DNA from: Minisyncoccota bacterium
GTDB lineage: Bacteria; Patescibacteriota; Minisyncoccia; 2-02-FULL-40-12; IGHO2-01-FULL-4-A
NCBI GenBank assembly: GCA_040881175.1
Contig: JBBEDS010000014.1
Coordinates: 23,174-87,173, forward strand
Direction: 5' to 3'
DNA length: 64,000 nt
The translations under genes and the position numbers were made by a program. The notes below the pieces were generated by a model. It made no database searches. It had not been told where the DNA came from and saw only the letters and a program-made list of their open reading frames with translations. Position 1 is the first letter of the stretch; the number at the start of each line of letters is the position of its first letter. This document shows, piece after piece, positions 8,800 through 54,647 of the stretch.

Positions 8800-8870
8800 G
8801 GGCCTATAGCTTAATGGTCGAGCACCCGCCTTGCACGCGGGAGATCGGGGTTCGATTCCCCGTAGGTCCA
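8800..8870 (+). tRNA. tRNA-Ala (anticodon TGC)
   Basis: Acceptor GGGCCTA/TAGGTCC with G3:U70 Ala identity pair, anticodon loop CTTGCAC, T-loop GGTTCGATTCC. Confidence 0.9.
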
Positions 8871-8871
8871 C

Positions 8872-9252
8872 ATGAAAACTATCGACGTAACTGCCGGGAT
8901 AATTAACCGTAATGGCAAATTCCTCATCGCAAAACGTAAAAAAGGAAAGCACCTAGAGGGTAAGTGGGAATTTCCAGGCGGCAAGATTGAGGCCTTAGAA
9001 ACACCGGAAGAATGCCTGCAAAGAGAGCTGGAAGAAGAGTTTGGGGTTAAAGTAGCCGTTGCTGATTTCGTAGCAGAAAGCATCTTCAACTATGGTGACA
9101 GGGTCATCAGATTGCTGGGCTATCGAGCAGAATATGTTTCCGGCGATTTCAAGCTAAATGCTCATGATGAAATTAAGTGGATTACAACCGATGAATTTAG
9201 TAAATTCGACTTCGCCGAGGCAGACCTGCCGATAATAGAAAAACTTATCTAA
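8872..9252 (+). CDS. Nudix hydrolase (MutT-like)
   Basis: Nudix box GGKIEALETPEECLQRELEEEFGV; ATG begins 2 nt after tRNA-Ala. Confidence 0.8.
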   Translation: MKTIDVTAGIINRNGKFLIAKRKKGKHLEGKWEFPGGKIEALETPEECLQRELEEEFGVKVAVADFVAESIFNYGDRVIRLLGYRAEYVSGDFKLNAHDEIKWITTDEFSKFDFAEADLPIIEKLI

Positions 9253-9578: not shown

Positions 9579-11560
9579 TGGACATCAAAAACGACTCACA
9601 AATTTTTGAAGGATTAAATGAGAAACAAGCTGAAGCGGTGCGGGCCACAGAAGGCCCCGTTTTAATATTGGCCGGAGCCGGTTCCGGTAAAACTAAAGCC
9701 CTGACACACAGAATAGCGTACCTAATATCTTCCGGGGTAAAGCCTGAGAATATCCTAGCGGTAACTTTTACCAATAAAGCTGCCGGTGAAGTTAAAGAGA
9801 GGGTTGCTAACATCCTCAAAACAACTAAGAAAGAGCTGGATGCCCGCTTGCCATATATGGGGACCTTCCACTCAATATGTCTGAAGATCCTCCGACATGA
9901 GATAGAGCAGCTCGACTATGGAAAGAACTTTTTAATATATGACGAAAGTGATCAGCTAACGTTAGTCAAATCAGTAATGCGAGACTTGGAACTGGATATT
10001 AAGAAATATAACCCCAGGGGGATACTAAACAGAATATCCAAGCTTAAAAGCGAGTTGATTGATCATGAGATGTTTGAGAAAAGCGCCAAGGAATATATGG
10101 AAAAGGTTGCCTCAAAGATATACACCGTCTACCAAACAACCCTGAAGAAAAATAACGCTCTGGATTTTGACGACCTAATAATGCTGAGCGTCGTCCTGTT
10201 CAGAGAATATCCTGTCACCCTGTCAAAATACCAAAATGCTTTTCAATATATTCTCGTCGATGAGTACCAAGACACTAATCCTGCGCAATACGCCTGGGTA
10301 AATCTTCTTGCAGAAAAGCACAGAAACCTCTTTGTCATTGGCGATGACTATCAAAGCATCTACCGCTGGCGCCAAGCTGATATTCGAAACATCCTAGATT
10401 TTGAGAAAGACTACCCGGAAGTAAAGACAATATTCCTTGAGCAAAACTACCGTTCAACCAAAAATATTCTTGCCGCAGCCAATAATGTAATCCTGAATAA
10501 CAAAGACCAGAAACATAAAAAGCTATGGACCGATAACCAGGAGGGAGAAAAAGTAATTCTAAAAGAATTGCCCAGCGAGAAATTTGAAGGTTTGTATATA
10601 GTAAAATCCATACTCAAGAATACTGATCAGGGCAAAAGTCTAGATGATTTTACAGTGCTCTATCGGACACATGCTCAATCGAGGTCAGTAGAGGAAGCCC
10701 TGCTAAGAGTCGGGCTTCCGTATCGAATAATCGGTGGGGTCAAATTCTATCAGAGGAGGGAAATCAAAGACATCCTTGCATACTTACGACTAGCTCTTAA
10801 TCCTCATGATGACGTCAGTTTTGAACGCATATACAATGTTCCGATTAGGGGCATAGGGCTTACATCATTTGAGAAACTGAGAACTATAGCCAGTCAAAGC
10901 TCAAGCCTCTCTGATGCCGCTAGGATCAGCAACGAGGGCGTACTAGGCAAAAAACAAGTATCCGCATTTCAGGGATTGGCAGCAATAATAACCGACTTGG
11001 AAAAAAAGTCTTTCGATCTGAGTCCTTCGGAATTAATTAAGCGCTTACTTAAAAGAACCAACTATGAATCGTATATAAACGATAAAAGTCCTGAAGGGGA
11101 AGAGCGCTGGGAGAACGTGAAAGAGATCCTTACTGCTACACAAAAGTATGAGAAGGTTCCGCCTAGGGAGGGTCTGGAAAAATTTCTAGAAGAGGTAGCG
11201 TTGATTCAGGAAACCGACAAGCTAACAAAGAAAGAAAAAGCCGTGAATCTAATGACAATGCATTCAGCGAAAGGCCTAGAGTTCCCAGTAGTATTCCTCA
11301 TCGGAATGGAGGATGGCATTTTTCCCCATTCTCGTTCCTTCTTCGATCCACATGAGCTAGAAGAAGAGCGGCGTCTTTGCTATGTCGGAATTACCCGAGC
11401 CAAGGAGCAGATCCATCTGACATACTGCAGGCAGAGAAATCTGTATGGTTCTGGCCAAAACAACCCGCCATCAAGATTTCTATTCGAAATACCAGAGAAC
11501 TTGGTTAACTTTTCCCCCTTAACGGATAATTCTGACTTTGATGAATTCATTGAATACTAG
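9578..11560 (+). CDS. UvrD/PcrA/Rep-family ATP-dependent DNA helicase
   Basis: Walker A AGAGSGKTKALTHRIAYL, motifs TFTNKAA, VDEYQDTN, GDDYQSIYRWRQA, C-terminal YVGITRAK. Confidence 0.9.
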   Translation: MDIKNDSQIFEGLNEKQAEAVRATEGPVLILAGAGSGKTKALTHRIAYLISSGVKPENILAVTFTNKAAGEVKERVANILKTTKKELDARLPYMGTFHSICLKILRHEIEQLDYGKNFLIYDESDQLTLVKSVMRDLELDIKKYNPRGILNRISKLKSELIDHEMFEKSAKEYMEKVASKIYTVYQTTLKKNNALDFDDLIMLSVVLFREYPVTLSKYQNAFQYILVDEYQDTNPAQYAWVNLLAEKHRNLFVIGDDYQSIYRWRQADIRNILDFEKDYPEVKTIFLEQNYRSTKNILAAANNVILNNKDQKHKKLWTDNQEGEKVILKELPSEKFEGLYIVKSILKNTDQGKSLDDFTVLYRTHAQSRSVEEALLRVGLPYRIIGGVKFYQRREIKDILAYLRLALNPHDDVSFERIYNVPIRGIGLTSFEKLRTIASQSSSLSDAARISNEGVLGKKQVSAFQGLAAIITDLEKKSFDLSPSELIKRLLKRTNYESYINDKSPEGEERWENVKEILTATQKYEKVPPREGLEKFLEEVALIQETDKLTKKEKAVNLMTMHSAKGLEFPVVFLIGMEDGIFPHSRSFFDPHELEEERRLCYVGITRAKEQIHLTYCRQRNLYGSGQNNPPSRFLFEIPENLVNFSPLTDNSDFDEFIEY

Positions 11561-12383
11561 AATAAAGAGAGAGCTCAAGGAAGCTGGCGTACGGCCTAAC
11601 AAACTACTCGGGCAGCACTTCCTAACCAGCATGTCCATCTATGAAAAAATCGTGGCTGCTCTTGATATACAGGGGGGTGATAAAATCATAGAAGTCGGAC
11701 CGGGCATTGGTATTCTAACAGAGCTAATCGCCAAACAAGGAGCAGATCTTTTTGCCGTGGAAAAAGATAAAGATTTCATACCGTTTCTAAAACATAAGTT
11801 TAAAAACCAAGAAAATGTTAAAATACTGGAAGGAGATATCTTAAAATTTGATCCGGAGAAATACGGGTTTAAAAAGGGTGCCTATAAAATTGTAGGGAAT
11901 ATACCATACTACCTAACATCAAGACTCTTCCGTATTACTCTTGAAGATTGGCCTCAAGCTAATCTGTCCGTGTTCATGATTCAGAAAGAGGTAGCCCAGA
12001 GGATAGTTGCACAACCGCCTCACATGAGCCTGCTCGGAGTTTCAGTGCAATACTTTGCAAAACCGAAGGTAGTAAGCCGTGTTTCAAAGTTGAGCTTTCA
12101 TCCTGTTCCTAAAGTAGATTCAGCTATAGTCAGGCTTACGCCAAATGATGAACCCCATCAGAAAGAATATGATGAAAAGTTTTTCAAAGTTCTCAAAGTC
12201 GGCTTCGCAGGCAAAAGAAAACAGCTGATCAATAATCTTCACTCCGGATTAAAAGAAGACAAACAGGAAATAGAAAAAAAATTAAATTCTATAGGAATTA
12301 ATTCCCAAAGAAGAGCAGAAACTCTAACCATTGAGGAATGGCAAAAAATTACTGAGTTATTCAACAGCACTGGTTCCCTTTAG
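11538..12383 (+). CDS. rsmA: 16S rRNA (adenine1518/1519-N6)-dimethyltransferase
   Basis: GQHFL and EVGPGIGILT SAM-binding motifs; NIPY catalytic motif. Confidence 0.9.
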   Translation: MMNSLNTRIKRELKEAGVRPNKLLGQHFLTSMSIYEKIVAALDIQGGDKIIEVGPGIGILTELIAKQGADLFAVEKDKDFIPFLKHKFKNQENVKILEGDILKFDPEKYGFKKGAYKIVGNIPYYLTSRLFRITLEDWPQANLSVFMIQKEVAQRIVAQPPHMSLLGVSVQYFAKPKVVSRVSKLSFHPVPKVDSAIVRLTPNDEPHQKEYDEKFFKVLKVGFAGKRKQLINNLHSGLKEDKQEIEKKLNSIGINSQRRAETLTIEEWQKITELFNSTGSL

Positions 12384-15181: not shown

Positions 15182-17509
15182 ATGTCAAAAACAAACCTAA
15201 GAAAAAACGTGCTTAAAATAGTCCTCATATCGCTGGTTTTATTTGCATTTTTTGTTCCCCAGCATACAAATGCCGATCTGATAGATATCTCGTCTTCCGT
15301 TTTCGATACAGGTGTGGCCTGGGCAAATGCCAGAGTACTGGAAGGCATGGGAAATATAATATCCTGGTCGGCATTGATGTTAGAACAGTTTATCAAACCG
15401 GATGTTCAAGAGTACATACTCAACTATAGCGTTGTCGAAGAAAGCTGGACGATAATCAGAAACTTCGTGAATATGTTCTTCATTCTGTTTTTAATCATTA
15501 TCGCCTTCGGTACTATCTTTGGTATTGAAAAATATTATTGGCGCAATACGATCATGCCGTTTCTAGCAGCGGCACTGCTAGTTAACTTTAGCTTAGCCAT
15601 AGGCAAGTTCGTTATCCAAATAGGTAACAGTCTCGCAGCAATGGTGCTTGTATGGATACAGCAGTCCGGAGCTAACATATCAACTAACCTGGGAAGTGGC
15701 CTGGGTCTGGGTTCTTATTTTAAAGATCCGGGAATTGGCGCCCTAGCATCTATTGCAGGCGGAGGCGCCCAGACTCTTGTAACTCTGGTCTTTTCGGCTG
15801 TATTCTTAACGATAACCCTATTCGCGCTTCTATCTGCACTAATATTCGCAATTGCCAGAATTCCTGTGTTGTGGGCAATTCTGATTTTATCTCCTATAGC
15901 CTTCGTCAGCTATGCACTACCGAGTCTACAGCATATCTGGAAAAAATGGTGGAGCTACTTAATAAGTTGGTCTTTTTTCTTGCCTACTTATTTATTTTTT
16001 CTGATGTTCTCCATATTCTTCATAAGCCAGAAGGGGAAGGTAGGTACCCCACAACCCACAGGAATAGCAGAGGCACTTGTCGGTCCAGGGTCAGCAGTAG
16101 GAGATCTGTTGTTTTTCATCCTCACCATATTATTCTTAGTGGGCGGTCTTCTCGCATCTTTCAAGGTTGGCTCTCTTGCTGGTAGTGGGGTGAACAAAAC
16201 ATTCAGTGCGATTCAGGGAGGTATTAAGAGGGGTACCAGAAGAATCACGGGTTATGACACTGCCGCAGCCGGAGTTAGAGAAGGCCTGCAAGGCAGGATA
16301 GACGAGATTAGCGAGAAAGGACTCGCTGGCATCGGCGGTGCCCAACGAGCCAGGATTAGCCAGGCTAAATGGGCCGAGAGTTTCGGCTTTGGAACAAAGA
16401 GGGGGGCGGCAGATGAAGCCCGCCAGAAAGAAATAGAGAAAGAATTCTCAAAACTCAAGACCCTAAACCTAGACAAAACTGGCTTGGAGCAGAGACTTTC
16501 AAGCACTAAGGGTATAGATAAGATGGCTGCCTTGAGGTTAAAGGCCGAACAAGGATGGCTTAATACAAAGGATCTTGATCAAATAAAGGAAGCCATACAG
16601 AGTTTGGGTGGAGGTAAGACTATAGCTGGTGTTTCATTCATTAACTCTCTGAAGAAGGGTGGCTTCAAAGATATTACAAAAAGCACCGTTGAAAAAGAGG
16701 CCCTCTTTAATAGTCTCTCTGGCCCTGAATTCATAGAGCTACAGAAAGCTCTTGGATCGGATATGGCAAAGAAGAAGGAGATTATTAAACCAGAGATGGC
16801 CAAGAAAGTTATTGGCTTGTATGAAAATGACTCAGCAGAGGCCAAGAAAGAAATCATGGATGCTATTAAAAATAATCTCGGCAATATATATGCGGATAAA
16901 GGCGCTCGTGAGAAGTTTCTTGTAGACACAACCGACGCGAGCAATACTGAGTTGCGAAGGTTGTTAGCAGAAAAAATGGTTGAAGACGACGAGATTGACA
17001 GCTATAAGAAATACCATGCTGCTCAAGAACTATTCAGCGGAGATCCACAAAAGATAACAGATATGCGCAATAAGATAGCGAAAGAAAACCCTATAGTTGC
17101 GGCTGAAGTCGAGACTAGATCTAACATGAGCGCTACAAAGCCAGGAATAATTAACCCAGACTACGTGCTTGAGGAGGCTGATCAAAAGGCAATAGCTGAC
17201 ACAGATACAATAAAGAAAGCTGTGGGTAAGGCAAGTGCCAAACAGCTGGGCCAATCTAACAAAGACACCTGGAAAGAAGATTGGTTTAAGATAGCCCTCT
17301 GGAAAAAAGCTGATTCATTACAAAAAGTAGACCCACACAAATCGGCCGCAGGTAAGAGGAGGAGAATACCTGGAGGAGGAGAAAGATTCTTACAATCCCT
17401 TAAAAAGTCTGTCGGCGAAAACACAGATAAAATACCTGTGCTAAATGAGTTGCTCCAGTCTTTTGATGAATCGACAGGAGCTTTTAACCCCCTGCCACCA
17501 ACCCCTTAG
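15182..17509 (+). CDS. VirB6/TrbL-like polytopic membrane protein with long charged C-terminal extension (putative T4SS channel component)
   Basis: Signal peptide, about 6-7 predicted TM helices in residues 90-330, then about 450 aa Lys/Glu-rich hydrophilic tail; topology typical of extended VirB6 proteins; no sequence-level confirmation possible by eye. Confidence 0.45.
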   Translation: MSKTNLRKNVLKIVLISLVLFAFFVPQHTNADLIDISSSVFDTGVAWANARVLEGMGNIISWSALMLEQFIKPDVQEYILNYSVVEESWTIIRNFVNMFFILFLIIIAFGTIFGIEKYYWRNTIMPFLAAALLVNFSLAIGKFVIQIGNSLAAMVLVWIQQSGANISTNLGSGLGLGSYFKDPGIGALASIAGGGAQTLVTLVFSAVFLTITLFALLSALIFAIARIPVLWAILILSPIAFVSYALPSLQHIWKKWWSYLISWSFFLPTYLFFLMFSIFFISQKGKVGTPQPTGIAEALVGPGSAVGDLLFFILTILFLVGGLLASFKVGSLAGSGVNKTFSAIQGGIKRGTRRITGYDTAAAGVREGLQGRIDEISEKGLAGIGGAQRARISQAKWAESFGFGTKRGAADEARQKEIEKEFSKLKTLNLDKTGLEQRLSSTKGIDKMAALRLKAEQGWLNTKDLDQIKEAIQSLGGGKTIAGVSFINSLKKGGFKDITKSTVEKEALFNSLSGPEFIELQKALGSDMAKKKEIIKPEMAKKVIGLYENDSAEAKKEIMDAIKNNLGNIYADKGAREKFLVDTTDASNTELRRLLAEKMVEDDEIDSYKKYHAAQELFSGDPQKITDMRNKIAKENPIVAAEVETRSNMSATKPGIINPDYVLEEADQKAIADTDTIKKAVGKASAKQLGQSNKDTWKEDWFKIALWKKADSLQKVDPHKSAAGKRRRIPGGGERFLQSLKKSVGENTDKIPVLNELLQSFDESTGAFNPLPPTP

Positions 17510-18059: not shown

Positions 18060-18803
18060 TTAAGATTTGTATCCTATGCTGAATAGTCCGAAACTAATAA
18101 CATTTACAATTCTCTTTGCAGTATAGAGGTTTACTAGGAGTCTGGATGAGACCTTGACTATAAATTCCTCCCTGCTAAAATTTTCAAAAAGGTAATCTCG
18201 AAAGATTCTAGTTATCTCTCTTTTTTGTTCCGTAGAAAGTTTAAATTTACGACCCAGCTTTTCTTCTATGAATACCGCGGTTTCGAAACCCATCATAGCT
18301 GACTGCTTATGGGGCGGCAGTTTACCTACTTTTTCTACGTAACCTTGAATCCGTGTTATATCGTCCTTGCTCAGCCGCTTGAGTGCCTCCTTTAGTAGCT
18401 GAAGTGTCTTTTGAAACCCAGCGGCCAGAGAGTATCTCTTTGCCTCTGCGGCAGAGAGCATCGCCTTTTCAGTCATGGCAATTTGACTCCTAAGTTCCTC
18501 TTCTTTTCTAAGTTGCTCAGCGGTTTTACCATAAGAATCAATATTGTAGGGTGTGGCGTACTCACGGTCTTCACCGTCGTAGTTAGCAATGTCAAAAGCC
18601 TCGCACTCTTCATCTCCAGGCTCTTCTTTGTCTATTTGAGTCTCCTTAATCAGTTCCGCTAAATTTTTATTCCCTAGATGGTCTTGATAACCTCTATTTT
18701 GCTCCAAAGTTCTTCGACGACCATCATTACTTAACCAACTTTCGGTACCTTCTAAAAGTGGGCGGTACCCTTTGAGACCCTCCTCATAGGAATAGCTGGA
18801 CAT
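18060..18803 (-). CDS. hypothetical protein (247 aa), opposite strand inside the T4SS-like block
   Basis: ORF track; coiled-coil-like charged protein. Confidence 0.4.
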   Translation of the reverse strand: MSSYSYEEGLKGYRPLLEGTESWLSNDGRRRTLEQNRGYQDHLGNKNLAELIKETQIDKEEPGDEECEAFDIANYDGEDREYATPYNIDSYGKTAEQLRKEEELRSQIAMTEKAMLSAAEAKRYSLAAGFQKTLQLLKEALKRLSKDDITRIQGYVEKVGKLPPHKQSAMMGFETAVFIEEKLGRKFKLSTEQKREITRIFRDYLFENFSREEFIVKVSSRLLVNLYTAKRIVNVISFGLFSIGYKS

Positions 18804-18961: not shown

Positions 18962-19306
18962 ATGCGCTTCCAAGTCCCACAATTTATAGAAACTGAGACC
19001 AAGATAGTAGGGCCATTTACGCTCAAGCAGTTTTTGTACTTAGCCTCTGGTGCAGCACTCATTTTTATACTTCAATATGCCGTCAGTTTTACTTTCTTGA
19101 TAATTCTCGGCCTACCTATAGCTATCCTAGCTCTTGCATTAGCGTTTTATAAAATTGATGGGATGCCTCTTCCGCAGTATATATTAATGGCATTTTCTTT
19201 CATGAGCGGTACTAAGAAATACGTTTTTAGTAAAAAACAGGATCAGCAATACATACAGAACCAGAATATTAAAAGCCTACAAGACCAGAACGACAATGGC
19301 AGCTAA
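18962..19306 (+). CDS. PrgI/VirB3-like small two-TM membrane protein
   Basis: 114 aa, two adjacent hydrophobic helices (LYLASGAALIFILQYAVSFTFLIILGLPIAILALALAFY), position immediately upstream of VirB4-like ATPase as in Gram-positive T4SS. Confidence 0.5.
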   Translation: MRFQVPQFIETETKIVGPFTLKQFLYLASGAALIFILQYAVSFTFLIILGLPIAILALALAFYKIDGMPLPQYILMAFSFMSGTKKYVFSKKQDQQYIQNQNIKSLQDQNDNGS

Positions 19307-19940
19307 AAAACAAGCGGCACAGCCGCAAACAACTAAAGACTTCGTCCAGATATCAGAAATTCGTGATAACATAGTAGTTCTTAAAGATGGCTCTCTGAGG
19401 TCTCTTATTGAAGTCGGGTCAATAAACTTTGAGTTAAAGTCTGCCGATGAGCAGGCGGCTATAATCCAAGGTTTTCAGGGATTTCTAAATTCGATAGATT
19501 TCCCTCTTCAAATCATGATCAACTCTAGGAAATTAGACATTGAACCATACGTAAAATCCCTTGAAGACTTGAGTCAGAGTCTTAAGAACGAGCTTCTGAA
19601 GATTCAGGCAGCTGAATATACTAGGTTCATAAAAGGCCTCACCGAACTGACTAATATCATGGCTAAGAAATTTTACATAATAGTTCCTTTCTATGTTATA
19701 GAAAATGCGGTCAAAACTCCTGGAGGATTCTTCGGAGCAATAAAGGGTGCCATAATCCCTTCGAAGGCTGAGAAAAAGATAACTGATGAAGAGTTGGAAA
19801 ACTACAAGGTGCAGCTCACCCAGAGGACAGATATAGTATATGGCGGCCTAAGCGGTCTTGGACTACAAATGAGAGTTTTATCAAAAAATGAACTTATGAA
19901 TATGTTTTATTCATATTATAACCCCGGTTCGCATCTATAA
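19296..19940 (+). CDS. VirB4/PrgJ-like ATPase, N-terminal domain encoded as separate ORF
   Basis: VQISEIRDNIVVLKDGSLRSLIEVGSINFELKSADEQAAIIQGFQGFLNSIDFPLQIMINSRKLDIEPYV matches conserved N-terminal region of Gram-positive VirB4 homologues; stop overlaps next start (TAATG). Confidence 0.65.
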   Translation: MAAKKQAAQPQTTKDFVQISEIRDNIVVLKDGSLRSLIEVGSINFELKSADEQAAIIQGFQGFLNSIDFPLQIMINSRKLDIEPYVKSLEDLSQSLKNELLKIQAAEYTRFIKGLTELTNIMAKKFYIIVPFYVIENAVKTPGGFFGAIKGAIIPSKAEKKITDEELENYKVQLTQRTDIVYGGLSGLGLQMRVLSKNELMNMFYSYYNPGSHL

Positions 19941-21700
19941 TGGCTGAGGAGATAACAGAACAACAAGGTAAGCTTACAGATGACCTACTAGCGCCCTCGG
20001 CTATAAATATTTCGTCTAGTAATATCCAAATCGGCAGCCAGTATGCACGAACGCTTTTTGTAGTTACATATCCAAGATATTTAAACACAAACTGGTTCTC
20101 TCCGATAATAAATCTAGATAGGCCTCTTGATATAGCAATCTACGTACATCCCCAGAATACGGCGACCATTCTGAAACAATTGCGGGATCGACTTGGCAGA
20201 TTTGAGGCGCAGGCGATGGAAGAGCAAGCGTCGGGCAAGGTCAGAGATCCCATTCTTGAAACAGCTATCCATGATATTGAAGTCTTAAGAGATCGTCTTC
20301 AGCAAGGCACTGATAGGTTCTTTGAGCTAGGCTTATATATAACAATCTATGGAGACTCCACCAAAGAACTCGATGAAACGGAGAATAAGATAAAGACTGT
20401 CATGGACGCCCAGCTTGTATATACAAAACCTGCCACCTTTCGTATGAAAGAAGGCTTCTTCTCTACAATGCCTCTTAACGACGACCAATTGAATGTTCAT
20501 ACCTCTCTTAACACCGAGCCGATATCATCGATATTCCCATTCGTCTCATACGATCTGACTACAGAGAAGGGGATACTCTATGGAATAAACAGCCATAATA
20601 ATTCTCTAGTTCTTTTCGACCGTTTTGACTTGGAAAATGCAAATATGGTCATCTTCGGTAAATCTGGAGGCGGTAAAAGTTATACGGTAAAACTTGAGAT
20701 ACTGAGAAGTTTAATGTTTGGGGCTCAAATATTTGTCATTGATCCTGAGAATGAATATAAGTTCTTATCAGATACGGTAGGAGGAACCACTGTTAAAATA
20801 TCCATAACCTCAGATAACCATATCAATCCTTTTGACTTACCTAAACCGCTGGAGGACGAGAGCTCCGCAGACGTTCTGCGTTCACATGTAGTTAACCTGG
20901 TCGGTCTCTTTAAGCTGATGTTCGGCGCATTAACACCCGAGGAGGAGGCAATTCTGGATGAGGCAATCACTCAAACATACGCGATAAAAGACATTACGCC
21001 AGGTACTCTTGATTTCAGTAACATCACTCCTCCTTTAATGTCTGACCTACAGAGCATACTTGAGGGAATGACCGGGACCGAGTCTCTTATTATCAGGATT
21101 AAGAAGTACACGGAGGGAAGCTACTCGGGATTCCTCAATAGTCCGACAGATGTTCAGCTGAACAACCAACTCGTAGCTTTTAGCATCAGAGATATGGAAG
21201 AAGAGTTACGACCTATAGCTATGTACCTTGTCCTTAACTTCATATGGACACAGGTTAGAGCTGAGCTGAGGAAGAGATTGTTGGTAGTAGACGAAGCCTG
21301 GGTTCTAATGAAGCATGATGCCGGAGCGCAGTTCCTTTTCAACGTCGCCAAACGCGCCCGCAAATACTTCTTAGGACTCACAACTATATCACAGGACATC
21401 CCTGACTTCATGGCTTCCCCTTACGGGAAACCAATCGTTACCAACTCCTCGTTACAGCTGCTACTAAAGCAGTCTCCAGCCTCCATTGATCTGGTACAAA
21501 AAACGTTCAATCTCACCGATGCTGAAAAATTCTTCTTGCTAGAATCTCAGGTTGGGCATGGTTTATTCTTCGCTGGTTCAAATCACGTTGCCTTAAGAGT
21601 TATTGCATCCTACGCAGAGGACCAAATTATAACCTCTGACCCTAGGCAGATACTCGAGATAGAGGAAGCAAAGAGGCAGCTTGAACAGAACGGAAGTTAA
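19940..21700 (+). CDS. VirB4/TrbE/CagE-family (DUF87/AAA_10) T4SS ATPase, core and C-terminal ATPase domain
   Basis: LLAPSAINISSSNIQIGSQYARTLFVVTYPRYLNTNWFSPIINLDRPLDIAIYVHP core; Walker A VIFGKSGGGKSYTVK; Walker B LLVVDEAW; length A+B about 800 aa equals full VirB4. Confidence 0.8.
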   Translation: MAEEITEQQGKLTDDLLAPSAINISSSNIQIGSQYARTLFVVTYPRYLNTNWFSPIINLDRPLDIAIYVHPQNTATILKQLRDRLGRFEAQAMEEQASGKVRDPILETAIHDIEVLRDRLQQGTDRFFELGLYITIYGDSTKELDETENKIKTVMDAQLVYTKPATFRMKEGFFSTMPLNDDQLNVHTSLNTEPISSIFPFVSYDLTTEKGILYGINSHNNSLVLFDRFDLENANMVIFGKSGGGKSYTVKLEILRSLMFGAQIFVIDPENEYKFLSDTVGGTTVKISITSDNHINPFDLPKPLEDESSADVLRSHVVNLVGLFKLMFGALTPEEEAILDEAITQTYAIKDITPGTLDFSNITPPLMSDLQSILEGMTGTESLIIRIKKYTEGSYSGFLNSPTDVQLNNQLVAFSIRDMEEELRPIAMYLVLNFIWTQVRAELRKRLLVVDEAWVLMKHDAGAQFLFNVAKRARKYFLGLTTISQDIPDFMASPYGKPIVTNSSLQLLLKQSPASIDLVQKTFNLTDAEKFFLLESQVGHGLFFAGSNHVALRVIASYAEDQIITSDPRQILEIEEAKRQLEQNGS

Positions 21701-21701
21701 C

Positions 21702-22361
21702 ATGCCCAGTTACACTGAAGAACAATACGCAAGTGGCCTTAGCATTGCTAGGACACGAAAAGAGCTCGTAGAAGTACAGTCAGAAGCAGATCGAGTCGTC
21801 AAACCACCTTCGGGTGTGTTGTACTTCTTTTTATATGGCTTCTCCATAATAGGAGATATAATTGACTTGGCAGATTTTACCGGAGTCGGCGCCGCTGTCT
21901 CTTTCGTAGTCGATATCTTTATCGGTATAATTCTATTTTTCGCCGGCCGAGCCGCCAGAAACAGAATCGAAACCATGAATAAGTTTCAAGACGAGATTCA
22001 TGGACACATCCAAAACATAGAAAGAAGGGTTGTTTCCCTTAGAAATAACTATGTGCGAGCAATAAAGATATCTCGCAAGATAAAACCCCTAAGAAAACCT
22101 GTACGCAAATTAGTGCTTCGCGTTTCAAAACTGCGCAAAAGCATTGCAAGAAATCCGATGACAAGAACAATGATTGCCGTAGTGGCTGACCTAATCCCTT
22201 TCCTAGGCATCATACCTTGGCGAACTATCAATATATACCTGATGAAGCGCGATGAGATGCGTGCATTTCAAGAAGCACAGGAGATGCTACCAGAATATGA
22301 GGCTGCCCGAGAAGAAGAGATGGCAGAGGCTAACCAGCTATCTGAGGCTCAATCCTACTAG
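21702..22361 (+). CDS. hypothetical membrane protein (about 220 aa, 2-3 TM)
   Basis: ATG one nt after VirB4 stop; hydrophobic GVLYFFLYGFSIIGDII..IFIGIILFFAG segments. Confidence 0.45.
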   Translation: MPSYTEEQYASGLSIARTRKELVEVQSEADRVVKPPSGVLYFFLYGFSIIGDIIDLADFTGVGAAVSFVVDIFIGIILFFAGRAARNRIETMNKFQDEIHGHIQNIERRVVSLRNNYVRAIKISRKIKPLRKPVRKLVLRVSKLRKSIARNPMTRTMIAVVADLIPFLGIIPWRTINIYLMKRDEMRAFQEAQEMLPEYEAAREEEMAEANQLSEAQSY

Positions 22362-22363
22362 AT

Positions 22364-23446
22364 ATGAGTAATAAAATAACTATACTATTACTATTCGTAC
22401 TTGCGGCATTTGCTGCCTTTTTAGGCGGTTACTTCCTTAGCCATAAGTCAGTCGTCGACACCTCTCCACAACAAGGACTTTTAAATAATACCCTCGTGTC
22501 TAGATTTAAGGAGTCTCCCGAGAAATACTCGGCACCGGTCGGACTATTTACCATTTCAAGAGAAAAAGCATCCTTCCCTTATTTGGCCAAAAGCGGCAAA
22601 GACGTACTTTACTATTATCCTAGCAGGGGAGAGGTCAGGTCTTCCGCCATAGAAGGCTCCGGGAATAATTCTGCTCTTGTCGCCACTATTAAACCGGGCG
22701 CATTAGATATACAGTGGTCTTCTGAGAGTAAGTTACTGGCCACCTATGTAGATGGCAACATCCTATACGACCTATCATCTGGCTCTTCAAAAGAACTCGA
22801 CAAAGATCTGGTTAGTCCGTCCTTCTCAAATCCAGGAGCCCATGTTGTCTACAATAGGCTAACCCCGGGTGCAACGGGAGGAGATATAAGAATTTCTGAC
22901 GCAGACTTCACTAATTTTAAGACACTACTGTCTACACGAATTGCTTCTTGGGATTTAGGCTGGATAGATAATGACAATATATATCTGCTAAAACAGCCAA
23001 CGTTAATCAACCAGCAAAGTTCTCTTTTAACACTGGGCGTAGAAACCAAAAAGCTAAGTAGTATTCTAGGGGATAAAAAAGACCTGCAGGTTAGCTGGTC
23101 TCCTGACGGACAAAAACTTCTCTATTCTTACGTGAGCAACAGCGCCGAAAGAGAGCTTTATGTAATGACTCTCTCCGATAAAAACTCCGAATTATTAGAC
23201 CTCGGTATCGTTGCTTCACAATGCGTATGGAGCATCGACAATAAAACTGTATTTTGCGGAAGTGGGAACTCTTTCTTTAGTCTAGATACCTCCATCACAA
23301 GACCAGAGCATACTAGAATAACAAGTCTGGGCAGAGATACTTTCAATATCTCTGTTATAAACCCGCTTCTTACTAGCTCGGAAGCTTATGTTGTATTCAT
23401 AAATGACCAGGACGGTAAGCTCTACGGCTTGAGTTTGGACAAGTAG
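22364..23446 (+). CDS. membrane-anchored beta-propeller (TolB/PD40-like) protein
   Basis: N-terminal TM; repeated DG-x-x-L-x-Y/SWSPDGQKLLYSY motifs reminiscent of PD40/WD40-like propeller blades. Confidence 0.45.
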   Translation: MSNKITILLLFVLAAFAAFLGGYFLSHKSVVDTSPQQGLLNNTLVSRFKESPEKYSAPVGLFTISREKASFPYLAKSGKDVLYYYPSRGEVRSSAIEGSGNNSALVATIKPGALDIQWSSESKLLATYVDGNILYDLSSGSSKELDKDLVSPSFSNPGAHVVYNRLTPGATGGDIRISDADFTNFKTLLSTRIASWDLGWIDNDNIYLLKQPTLINQQSSLLTLGVETKKLSSILGDKKDLQVSWSPDGQKLLYSYVSNSAERELYVMTLSDKNSELLDLGIVASQCVWSIDNKTVFCGSGNSFFSLDTSITRPEHTRITSLGRDTFNISVINPLLTSSEAYVVFINDQDGKLYGLSLDK

Positions 23447-28600: not shown

Positions 28601-29689
28601 ATGAATATAATAATAAATCAGAAAAGATTCTTAACAGCTCTGAGGGTTGTTGAAAAAGTTGTCTCAAAAAATACTTCTTTGCCAATTCTCAACACAGTAT
28701 TACTCAAAACGGATAACGGCAGTTTAAAACTTTCCGCTACGAATCTAGAAATCGGAATTAATTATTGGATTGGAGCCAAAGTAGAAAAAGATGGAGAGGT
28801 AGCTGTTCCAGCTAAAATATTCTCAGATTTCATAAGTAATATTTCAGACGAGAAAATTAAGGTAACCTCCAATAAAAATGTGGTGTCCATAAATTCCGAG
28901 CATTATAAAACTCAAATACTGGGAATGGACACAAAAGATTTTCCGATAATTCCCAAAATAAAAAAAGATAATTCTTTCAAAATAAATACGCAGGTACTAA
29001 AAAATTCTTTAGCTAATGTATTAGATTCAACTTCTCTTTCCGAAACAAGACCAGAGCTGAGTGGGGTATATGTTAATGCTTTAAGCAATAAAATTGAATT
29101 TGCTGCGACAGATAGTTTTCGTCTTTCTGAAAAATTAATTCCGCTAAAAGAAGGTATTAGCAAATCATTTATTATTCCGAGAAATACTGTAATAGAGATA
29201 ATAAGAACAGTTGAGAATATGGATGAAGATATTAATATATCCGTCTCTGAAAATCAGATTTTTGTTCACGGACAAGACTTTGAATTGATCTCTCGCTTAA
29301 TTGATGGCCGCTACCCGGAGTACAAAAAAGTTATTCCCGATAAATTTATCTCCCTAGTCAGATTAGAAAAGTCTGAGTTTGAAAAAAATATCAGGATGGC
29401 TAGTGTATTTTCTTCAAGTATATCCGACATAAAGCTTAAAGTTTCAAAAGATACTATGGAAATATCAGCCAAGAATAGCGATAGAGGAGAGATCACCTCA
29501 CACATGAGTTGTGATCTAAAAAGCAGCCCATTTGAGATATTAGTTAACTACCACTATCTTTTAGATGGACTAAAAACAATACCGACAGGAAATGTAATTA
29601 TGGAGTTTACTGGCGATGGGAGTCCTTTAGTTATAAAACCCGAAGAGAAAAAGGATCAAACTTACGTTATTATGCCTCTTAGGAATTAG
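28601..29689 (+). CDS. dnaN: DNA polymerase III beta sliding clamp
   Basis: 362 aa, three-domain clamp, typical N-term MNIIINQKRFLTALRVVEKVVS. Confidence 0.9.
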   Translation: MNIIINQKRFLTALRVVEKVVSKNTSLPILNTVLLKTDNGSLKLSATNLEIGINYWIGAKVEKDGEVAVPAKIFSDFISNISDEKIKVTSNKNVVSINSEHYKTQILGMDTKDFPIIPKIKKDNSFKINTQVLKNSLANVLDSTSLSETRPELSGVYVNALSNKIEFAATDSFRLSEKLIPLKEGISKSFIIPRNTVIEIIRTVENMDEDINISVSENQIFVHGQDFELISRLIDGRYPEYKKVIPDKFISLVRLEKSEFEKNIRMASVFSSSISDIKLKVSKDTMEISAKNSDRGEITSHMSCDLKSSPFEILVNYHYLLDGLKTIPTGNVIMEFTGDGSPLVIKPEEKKDQTYVIMPLRN

Positions 29690-36190: not shown

Positions 36191-36400
36191 ATAGAGTCCC
36201 TGGGTTAGGGGCTTTAGTTTAAACCTTATAGTCTGTAGGCAATTGAGCTATTTGATATAATCATACGGCTCAATCGGAGTATTCTCGCAGACGGGTGTCT
36301 TGGTTCCGACTGGGATATACCTCGGTACTACTCTACCCTGGGTTTCCTTAGGTCCGGGTTTTTGCCTACAGGCTATAGGGTTTAATTTTTTTATTCTCCA
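36191..36400 (+). ncRNA. candidate structured small RNA (about 200 nt) of unknown class
   Basis: Downstream of promoter; imperfect 19/21-bp long-range inverted repeat (AACCTTATAGTCTGTAGGCAA at 36222 pairs with TTGCCTACAGGCTATAGGGTT at 36362) enclosing internal hairpins (ATTGAGC...GCTCAAT), ends in T-run TAATTTTTTTA; no CDS on this strand. Confidence 0.3.
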
Positions 36401-38061
36401 ACTACTCGTAGTACTTCGTCAATGGAAGTTATCCCCGAAATGGCTTTTATCAGGCCGTCTTGCAGCAAAGTTATCATTCCTTTCTCCTTGGCCATATCTT
36501 CTACTTCAGATATTGCCGGCGATTTTAATATCAATCTTTCCATATCCGGATCAATCTCAAAAAGTTCGTATACTCCGATGCGTCCCTTGTAGCCGGTCCC
36601 ATTGCAGTCCTCGCAGCCTTGGGGGTAATGTATCTCCATTGATTCACTCAAGTCAGTAGCCTCAACTTCTTTGGGCAGCTTAGCCAGATATTTTCTTAGC
36701 AGCTCGAGATCCGGGGCTGCTATTTTTTGTTTCTTCTTACAGTTTTCGCAAAGACGTCTGACAAGACGCTGAGCCATTGCAGCATTAAGAGCCGGAGCTA
36801 TAGTCACAGGTTTTACGTTGAAATCAATGAGTCTAGGGATGGTTCCAGCCGCGTTATTAGTGTGCAGAGTCGAGAATACCAAGTGTCCCGTCAAAGACGC
36901 CTGCATGGCGATCTCGGCTGTTTCCGCATCACGTATCTCACCGACCAATATTACATCCGGATCCTGTCTGACTATTGAACGTAGCCCATCAGCAAAAGTG
37001 TATCCGGCCCGTGCATCAACTTGCGTTTGAGCTACCCCTTCAATGTGGTATTCGATTGGATCTTCGATCGTTATTATCTTCACATCTGGGCTATTAACTT
37101 GTCGCAAGAAAGCATATAGGGTGGTTGTCTTACCAGAGCCAGTAGGGCCGGTGGTTAATATTGAGCCCGTAGTTTTTTGTAAAAGCTTTTTGATCTTGGC
37201 TAAGGTATCTCCACGCATTCCTAAATCTTCTAGCTTTTGTCGGATAGTCAACGGATCGAGAAGACGCATTACAATGTTCTCGCCATAAGCTCCGGGTAGG
37301 ACTGACACACGAACTTCAATATCTCTACCTTCTTGTCTGATCGTAAAGCGACCATCTTGGGGAACATTGTGGACGTTTATCTTTAGTCCGGACAGGAGCT
37401 TAATGCGGGAAAGAATATTCGGGTAGCCCGTTGTAGAAAAATCGACGATGTCGCTCAGCATCCCATCCAGACGGTAGCGTAGTCTAATAGCGGCCTCTTC
37501 TGGTTCAAGGTGAATATCTGATGCTCCTACCTTGAGAGCACCAGCCATGATCATGTTTAGAACCTTGGTGATTGGAAGAGATGTCAGCTGTTCTTTTAAG
37601 TCAGCGAGCCCTTCTATCTGGCCCTCGAGGTTGGCTATCTCAGATTCTTTAATGGAGACTACTCCCTCCGTGGTTTGAGAACGCTCCTTCTTGAGCTCAT
37701 ATCTTTGCCAAGCGGAAGCTAGGCTTTCGCCCGAGACTATAACAACGTCAGGGTTGTAGCCGTCTTTCCTTAATTTTTCCAAAGAGGCGGAAGTCGGATG
37801 ATTGTCAGGGTTTAAAACAGCCACCCGAATATCCTTACCTTTCTTTGATATGACCGCCATTTGACTGGCGCGAGCGTCACTCTCTTGCATAAGCAAGATA
37901 GCGTCGTTGTCTATAGGGAAAGATTTGAGGTTAAGGTAGTGAAGGCCGGCCTTTTGCGCCAAGGCCTTAGCATTATCTTCATCCTGCTGTTTTTTGATGG
38001 AAGATAGCTTCTCTTCCAGCTCTTTCTCCAGCTCAGGTTTTTTTAGTGATGTTTGAGCCAT
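36391..38061 (-). CDS. pilB: type IV pilus assembly / type II secretion ATPase PilB/GspE
   Basis: GSPII_E N-terminal domain, Walker A LTTGPTGSGKTTTLYAFL, Asp/His boxes, tetracysteine CEDC...CNGTGY zinc motif. Confidence 0.9.
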   Translation of the reverse strand: MAQTSLKKPELEKELEEKLSSIKKQQDEDNAKALAQKAGLHYLNLKSFPIDNDAILLMQESDARASQMAVISKKGKDIRVAVLNPDNHPTSASLEKLRKDGYNPDVVIVSGESLASAWQRYELKKERSQTTEGVVSIKESEIANLEGQIEGLADLKEQLTSLPITKVLNMIMAGALKVGASDIHLEPEEAAIRLRYRLDGMLSDIVDFSTTGYPNILSRIKLLSGLKINVHNVPQDGRFTIRQEGRDIEVRVSVLPGAYGENIVMRLLDPLTIRQKLEDLGMRGDTLAKIKKLLQKTTGSILTTGPTGSGKTTTLYAFLRQVNSPDVKIITIEDPIEYHIEGVAQTQVDARAGYTFADGLRSIVRQDPDVILVGEIRDAETAEIAMQASLTGHLVFSTLHTNNAAGTIPRLIDFNVKPVTIAPALNAAMAQRLVRRLCENCKKKQKIAAPDLELLRKYLAKLPKEVEATDLSESMEIHYPQGCEDCNGTGYKGRIGVYELFEIDPDMERLILKSPAISEVEDMAKEKGMITLLQDGLIKAISGITSIDEVLRVVGE

Positions 38062-54570: not shown

Positions 54571-54647
54571 TGGTGGGCGTGCCTGGACTCGAACCAGGGA
54601 CCCCGGACTTATAAGATCCGTGCTCTAACCAACTGAGCTACACGCCC
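54571..54647 (-). tRNA. tRNA-Ile2 (anticodon TAT, reads AUA), CCA encoded
   Basis: Reverse strand GGGCGTG-TA-GCTCAGTTGGTTAGAGC-A-CGGAT-CTTATAA-GTCCG-GGGTC-CCTGGTTCGAGTCCAGG-CACGCCC-A-CCA; positions 34-36 = TAT. Confidence 0.7.

Follow-up and report, generated by a model that had tools for sequence, protein, structure and literature searches.

Within the 64,000-nucleotide (nt) stretch of contig JBBEDS010000014.1 (assembly GCA_040881175.1) that was analysed here and is referred to as the window, two adjoining open reading frames (ORFs) of 214 and 586 amino acids (aa), termed N-ORF and C-ORF, together correspond to one VirB4 ATPase. We consider them, with a probability of roughly 0.92, to be two genuine genes, each translated on its own, that belong to a chromosomal type IV secretion system (T4SS) of the Patescibacteria type: the first encodes a TrsD-like protein of 214 aa, and the second a VirB4 of 586 aa from which precisely this portion is absent. 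The original prediction, made from the sequence letters alone, had reported two ORFs that meet at TAATG in different frames and sum to about 800 aa, and had left a genuine split with translational coupling, a frameshift pseudogene and a sequencing or assembly indel side by side as explanations. We confirmed both ORFs, their junction (CAT CTA TAATG GCT, with the C-ORF frame offset by 2 relative to N-ORF) and their combined length. As an interpretation, the genuine split was borne out, while the domain description had to be revised, and the TrsD/TraD family (PF26593) and the published arrangement had gone unrecognised.

One argument for a single ancestral protein comes from the way in which the two products share the VirB4 profiles. 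C-ORF passed the cut-off of the NCBIfam CD1110-family VirB4 profile (NF045971; 353.3 bits, cut-off 325), with a match that spans positions 180-733 of 752 only and nothing for positions 1-180. N-ORF matched full-length VirB4 profiles at their N-terminal ends (CD1110 positions 9-119, PRK13853 positions 18-67), so that positions 9-119 and beyond of NF045971 come from N-ORF and no single polypeptide of the pair spans that whole profile. When both ORF products were joined artificially in silico and the N+C concatenation was searched against VirB4 profiles, residues 14-747 aligned to positions 9-724 of 792 of TIGR00929, in one stretch through residue 214/215, and residues 163-765 aligned to positions 122-733 of CD1110 with 381 bits; the profile scores exceeded those of C-ORF alone. 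These unbroken alignments indicate that N-ORF and C-ORF complement each other and directly adjoin as parts of a single ancestral VirB4, of which nothing is lost or doubled. Against the TIGR00929 VirB4_CagE profile, C-ORF scored 131.6 bits and the concatenation 139.2, both under the curated cut-off of 643, which marks C-ORF as homologous but of another subclass, as expected of MPF_FATA-related proteins.

The point of the break was located by comparison with known VirB4 proteins. The solved VirB4 C-terminal domain (PDB 4AG5) aligned to C-ORF residues 212-565 (E=1.5e-43), and residues 302-733 of TrwK aligned to C-ORF residues 109-531. According to both alignments, the chain breaks near TrwK residue 190, midway through the N-terminal domain, which measures some 400 aa. 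The division into an N-terminal domain and an ATPase core that had been proposed for the pair is therefore inexact, as the break falls inside the N-terminal domain and the first ~211 residues of C-ORF are its second half. The VirB4 N-terminal peptide quoted at the time (KDGSLRS...EPYV) was found at N-ORF residues 30-86 (window 19383-19553), and the Walker motifs attributed to C-ORF were located as GKSGGGKS and LLVVDE, both of them intact and lying in the RecA-like C-terminal domain. The Pfam matches of C-ORF were P-loop_TraG, AAA_10, DUF87 and, weakly, CagE_TrbE_VirB (residues 31-180).

The N-ORF product (locus tag WD898_03645, annotated "hypothetical protein") is soluble, has no transmembrane (TM) segment and stands in the gene order PrgI (VirB3-like), TrsD-like N-ORF, VirB4 C-ORF. 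The PrgI gene, whose 3' end overlaps N-ORF by 11 nt, encodes a product that matched Pfam PrgI (E=2.3e-10, 41.3 bits vs a cut-off of 27) and carries a hydrophobic segment at residues 19-67. A stand-alone protein of about 200 aa that is homologous to the VirB4 N-terminus and encoded between a VirB3-like gene and virB4 corresponds to TrsD/TraD in the broad sense. Comparison of the N-ORF family with TrsD of plasmid pGO1 by hhalign (E=1e-4) ran end-to-end in both proteins, including the C-terminal FYxxY motif, and Pfam PF26593 (TraC-like) is listed in precomputed annotation, and there only, for the identical protein and for all of the best 120 homologues of N-ORF. On sequence grounds, the N-ORF product is a distant homologue of TrsD/TraD outside the narrow subfamily NF041427, against which pGO1 TrsD itself scores 227.6 bits, and a TrsD/TraD-type protein: the VirB4 N-terminal domain has its first half specified by a separate gene. 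Searched against PDB sequences, the N-ORF family profile returned designed helical proteins only (E>0.06), and the tie of N-ORF to solved VirB4 structures was obtained from fold comparison only.

A comparison with orthologues had been proposed to reveal whether the split is conserved, and both halves proved to be separate genes in every relative examined, none of the orthologues being unsplit. The best 120 homologues of N-ORF (100-55% identity) and of C-ORF (100-69% identity) were all stand-alone proteins, of 200-273 aa and 561-614 aa, respectively. An exhaustive HMMER search with N-ORF in 1.84 billion cluster representatives (50% clustering) gave 2509 matches, and none of the best 150 of these, which reach down to 35% identity and measure 147-443 aa, was VirB4-sized. 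The C-terminus of the small protein (...YYNPGxHL) is kept in position and sequence among homologues. We also took 80 loci from other species (Yanofskybacteria, Moranbacteria, Paceibacterota and others), and in all 80 the N-ORF homologue closes with a stop codon and is followed by the ATPase ORF. For 78 loci, a start could be placed for the C-ORF homologue. In 12 of these the two genes overlap, by 14 nt at most, 31 have gaps of 0-10 nt, and 35 have longer ones, up to 403 nt; the relative frames 0/+1/+2 of the gene pair were found 20/26/32 times. The closest other species (L087) has TAATCATG in place of the TAATG junction. Compared to this species, the proportion of nonsynonymous differences (pN) was 0.061 for N-ORF and 0.036 for C-ORF, and that of synonymous differences (pS) 0.79 and 0.72. 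The amino acid identity of both ORFs to the nearest species is 87-93%, while synonymous sites are saturated, and the low pN relative to the saturated pS argues that both ORFs are under strong purifying selection. Over 77 species, distances between pairs of N-ORF homologues rise with those between their C-ORF partners (r=0.82, Mantel p=0.001). Overall, the pair consists of two cistrons that jointly match one VirB4, are inherited together and stand under selection, and the split is genuine and apparently ancient.

These comparative data also decide against the readings in which a normal single virB4 was broken by a frameshift, leaving a pseudogene, or by a sequencing or assembly indel. At face value, a canonical-length VirB4 is interrupted once, and the source is a metagenome-assembled genome (MAG). 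However, both readings are refuted: the independent assembly GCA_040900475 (L086), from nearly the same organism, has the identical junction, with 3 mismatches in 2739 bp; close and distant relatives alike show the two-gene layout, in which N-ORF ends at the same ...YYNPGxHL position; both ORFs are under the purifying selection just described; and the Walker motifs are intact. The same split also occurs in complete plasmids of cultured bacteria. We assign next to no probability to either of these explanations. Only marginally more credible, and still very improbable, is that programmed ribosomal frameshifting or other recoding at TAATG yields a single 800-aa VirB4. Such a mechanism would agree with the one-base overlap of the ORFs, their differing frames and their joint collinearity with a full-length VirB4, but the C-ORF frame is open only from 19922 on, and no X XXY YYZ slippery heptamer is present in the 18 nt ahead of the stop (CCC CGG TTC GCA TCT ATA ATG, read in that frame). 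The varied frames and long spacers in the 78 other species fit two independent cistrons and rule out a conserved recoding site and programmed frameshifting as a conserved mechanism, and plasmids of cultured organisms have intergenic gaps between the two genes, of 14 nt in pGO1 and 130 nt in pJFP838A.

The same two-gene arrangement extends well beyond the relatives of the window. Searching complete plasmids by tblastn for the 214-aa protein gave 51 records, mostly from Firmicutes and some from Actinomycetota and haloarchaea. On plasmid pGO1 of Staphylococcus aureus, a VirB3-like gene is followed by trsD (227 aa, listed as TrsD/TraD family) and a 672-aa DUF87/VirB4 gene. Clostridium perfringens pJFP838A and a Miltoncostaea oceani plasmid encode PrgI, a hypothetical protein of 312-337 aa and then a DUF87 ATPase of 641-661 aa, and the corresponding triad of a Bacillus thuringiensis plasmid is an unnamed 122-aa gene, a 237-aa protein and a 645-aa ATPase. 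The six systems whose partner ATPase begins at CD1110 position 169-183 are the window, pGO1 (TrsE) and the C. perfringens pJFP838A, Miltoncostaea, B. thuringiensis and Salinibaculum plasmids. The fission is by all appearances old and common to pGO1-type Gram-positive conjugation systems. In Patescibacteria, TrsD has been reported as the most abundant T4SS component, with 2,272 homologues of which 1,664 adjoin virB4 (Quinonero-Coronel et al. 2025, PMC12102498), and described as remotely homologous to the N-terminal portion of VirB4, with no assigned function (PMC12102498). Outside Patescibacteria it is limited to the pGO1 subclass of MPF_FATA (PMC12102498), and it is reported as essential in Southlakia epibionticum (PMC12102498), the one patescibacterium examined by transposon sequencing (Tn-seq), whose T4SS has been shown to be essential (Wang et al. 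2023, PMC10633639). PMC12102498, which does not state that the adjacent VirB4 lacks its N-terminal portion, was the only relevant one among the matches listed in a full-text literature search for TrsD, and the main text of Guglielmini 2014 does not name TrsD.

Variants of the arrangement were observed in the same searches. On the Salinibaculum sp. KK48 plasmid NZ_CP129994.1 (2523-8323 of the fetched locus), the TrsD-like region makes up the last ~200 aa of a protein of 1075 aa, and the downstream 843-aa DUF87/VirB4 has a 178-aa N-terminal extra before the break at CD1110 position 181; the domains of the module are packaged in another way there. Many TrsD-like proteins among the representatives have P/Q-rich low-complexity N-terminal extensions of 40-125 aa or C-terminal extensions of 100-230 aa. 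Candidate VirB3-TrsD fusions (P0290, P0328, P0336, P0374, P0301 and others) were rejected, as they showed P/Q-rich tails with no TM helix and no PrgI match. Of the 51 plasmids with a TrsD-like gene, 42 were typed as non-mobilizable, and several, of 300-800 kb, carry genes of the PrgI, TrsD-like and DUF87 types with no relaxase evident close by, which suggests that relaxase-less TrsD/VirB4 modules may extend beyond Patescibacteria.

Five observations weigh against our reading of the pair. N-ORF scored only 33.3 bits against TrsD/TraD (NCBIfam NF041427; E=4e-8, N-ORF residues 8-130 at positions 10-142 of 201), far under the cut-off of 200. The hhalign probability of the N-ORF family vs pGO1 TrsD was only 57%, and a local Pfam scan of N-ORF gave no family. 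Spacers of 11-403 nt separate the two genes in 35 of the 78 related species. Finally, TrsD homologues in Gracilibacteria do not adjoin virB4 (PMC12102498), which makes an independent role possible. The last point bears on an alternative explanation, in which the 214-aa protein is an extra, paralogous VirB4 N-terminal module that acts as an independent accessory factor and is not the missing piece of the adjacent ATPase. We consider this improbable because C-ORF starts at about position 180 of full-length models, without a match to 1-180, and N-ORF covers exactly those positions; furthermore, the concatenation crosses the junction without gap or duplication, and the same break point is found in five other systems.

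The spacers also set the limits of translational coupling. The 1-nt stop/start overlap probably helps joint production of both parts in this genome, as it would for other tightly packed genes of the operon, and the TAATG overlap plausibly fits coupling by termination and reinitiation. The coupling that had been predicted for the pair thus remains plausible for this genome, but long spacers in many relatives indicate that it is not a conserved feature, let alone a requirement, and the equally tight packing across the operon (11-nt overlap, 1-2-nt gaps) indicates that it is not special to the TAATG junction. No GGAGG-like Shine-Dalgarno motif was found at 15 inspected gene starts (8018-28601), whose upstream regions are A/T-rich. 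As the motif is lacking at all 15 starts, its absence at the TAATG junction is uninformative, and the pattern suggests Shine-Dalgarno-independent initiation in this organism.

For two separately translated genes, we propose that both products, once translated, would reassemble non-covalently into a VirB4-like unit. By analogy, the TrsD-like piece may form the membrane-proximal face through which the ATPase hexamer is docked to PrgI/VirB3 and the membrane channel. In the R388 system, VirB3 is wound around VirB4's N-terminal domain (PMC9259494). Together with the position of the TrsD-like gene right after, and overlapping, the VirB3-like gene, this contact makes a docking adaptor the likeliest role. 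It is also conceivable, if rather unlikely, that the fission in the middle of the N-terminal domain is functionally exploited, with a detachable TrsD module produced at a stoichiometry that differs from that of the ATPase, or linking one and the same hexamer to other partners in the membrane. Of the twelve VirB4 subunits in R388, only the six central ones bind VirB3. Modularity of this kind is hinted at by the TrsD genes of Gracilibacteria that are unlinked from virB4 and by the haloarchaeal plasmid, in which the TrsD domain is part of a large upstream protein. If true, an exploited fission would allow the inner-membrane complex of relaxase-less Patescibacteria systems to be regulated or reconfigured.

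Table 1 Coordinates of the split virB4 and of other features in the window.
Feature	Position	Strand	Description
TrsD/TraD-like gene (N-ORF)	19296-19940	+	214 aa, ATG start, TAA stop at 19938-19940
Short VirB4 gene (C-ORF), predicted ATPase	19940-21700	+	586 aa, ATG at 19940-19942
TAATG junction	19938-19942	+	N-ORF stop and C-ORF start have one A in common
C-ORF residues 1-211	19940-20572	+	Second half of VirB4 N-terminal domain
C-ORF residues 212-565		+	RecA-like ATPase domain (predicted), PDB 4AG5 alignment
Walker A GKSGGGKS	20657-20680	+	C-ORF residues 240-247
Walker B LLVVDE	21278-21295	+	C-ORF residues 447-452
PrgI family (VirB3-like) small membrane protein	18962-19306	+	114 aa
Polytopic membrane protein, probably VirB6/TrbL-like	15182-17509	+	775 aa, upstream in cluster
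Two downstream genes without assigned role	21702-23446	+	219 aa and 360 aa, synteny kept in relatives
ksgA	11538-12383		Within window
dnaA	27011-28378	+	Pfam Bac_DnaA; start 5.3 kb downstream of virB4
dnaN	28601-29689	+	Pfam DNA_pol3_beta

The surroundings of the pair agree with a secretion system of the Patescibacteria type (Table 1), which is defined by a chromosomal virB4 with adjoining TrsD and VirB3/PrgI genes and, as here, lies near dnaA/dnaN. In Paceibacteria, the T4SS cluster is found near dnaA, dnaN, ksgA and rnpA and is usually without a relaxase (PMC12102498). No relaxase or coupling protein was detected among 28 window ORFs scanned with Pfam, and the rest of the window consists of housekeeping genes. 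The 775-aa membrane protein upstream gave no Pfam match in a local scan; its L087 ortholog showed a weak TrbL_3 match, and synteny is kept in L086 and L087. The 219-aa and 360-aa genes downstream are separated from their neighbours by gaps of 1 and 2 nt.

Other features of the window were recorded alongside. A 247-aa ORF (18060-18803), with no Pfam match, lies on the minus strand in the midst of the T4SS cluster, whose other genes are on the plus strand. L086 has this ORF too; L087 lacks it and has a 183-aa gene directly before PrgI. At 15 kb from the cluster, a PilB/T2SSE-type ATPase (36391-38061, minus strand; Pfam T2SSE E=1e-122 plus a MshEN domain) probably belongs to a type IV pilus machinery. 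A tRNA-Ile with anticodon TAT (UAU) is encoded at 54571-54647 (minus strand) and adjoins tRNA-Val(tac). Isoleucine tRNAs of the UAU type are uncommon in bacteria, where AUA is usually read by a lysidine-modified CAU tRNA, and the gene may indicate a TilS-independent strategy of AUA decoding. In the region 8800-8872 (plus strand), no spacer separates a tRNA-Ala (tgc), whose last base is 8871, from the start codon (ATG) of a NUDIX hydrolase gene at 8872.

For annotation, these results mean that the pair should be neither flagged as a pseudogene nor merged, and that WD898_03645 can be named a TrsD-like VirB4 N-terminal module. The gene arrangement is already published and widespread, and since the window is one instance of it, the finding is not a discovery. 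The analysis adds two modest points. First, the short VirB4 lacks the first half of its N-terminal domain, and the neighbouring TrsD is that half, a relationship stated only loosely in the literature. Second, the break point is alike in Patescibacteria, Firmicutes, Actinomycetota and haloarchaeal elements. The comparison also suggests a role for a family without assigned function, namely docking of the ATPase to VirB3/PrgI.

Among known systems, canonical single-chain VirB4 proteins (R388 TrwK, Agrobacterium VirB4; TIGR00929) have the ATPase motifs and the fold in common with the pair of the window. VirB3-VirB4 fusions (Mycoplasma integrative and conjugative element Mbov_0397 family, NF045975) provide a second reference point, as PrgI, N-ORF and C-ORF are collinear with positions 28-112, 96-233 and 285-890, respectively, of the 894-position fusion profile, which N-ORF also matches on its own. 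Compared to these proteins, which consist of one or two polypeptides, the window has three. Closer is the pGO1 system (TrsD and TrsE, also TraD and TraE of the pSK41/pIP501 type; MPF_FATA), which has the same gene order as the window and a VirB4 that breaks at the same CD1110 position (~180). However, pGO1 is a conjugative plasmid with a relaxase and a VirD4 coupling protein, whereas the cluster of the window is chromosomal and lies by dnaA, and the sequence identity between pGO1 TrsD and N-ORF is low, with the NCBIfam cut-off not reached. The closest agreement is with the T4SS described for Patescibacteria (PMC12102498), from which the window, part of a Candidatus Paceibacterota MAG and with an MPF_FATA-related VirB4, an adjoining TrsD homologue and PrgI/VirB3 near dnaA/dnaN/ksgA/rnpA, differs in nothing substantive.

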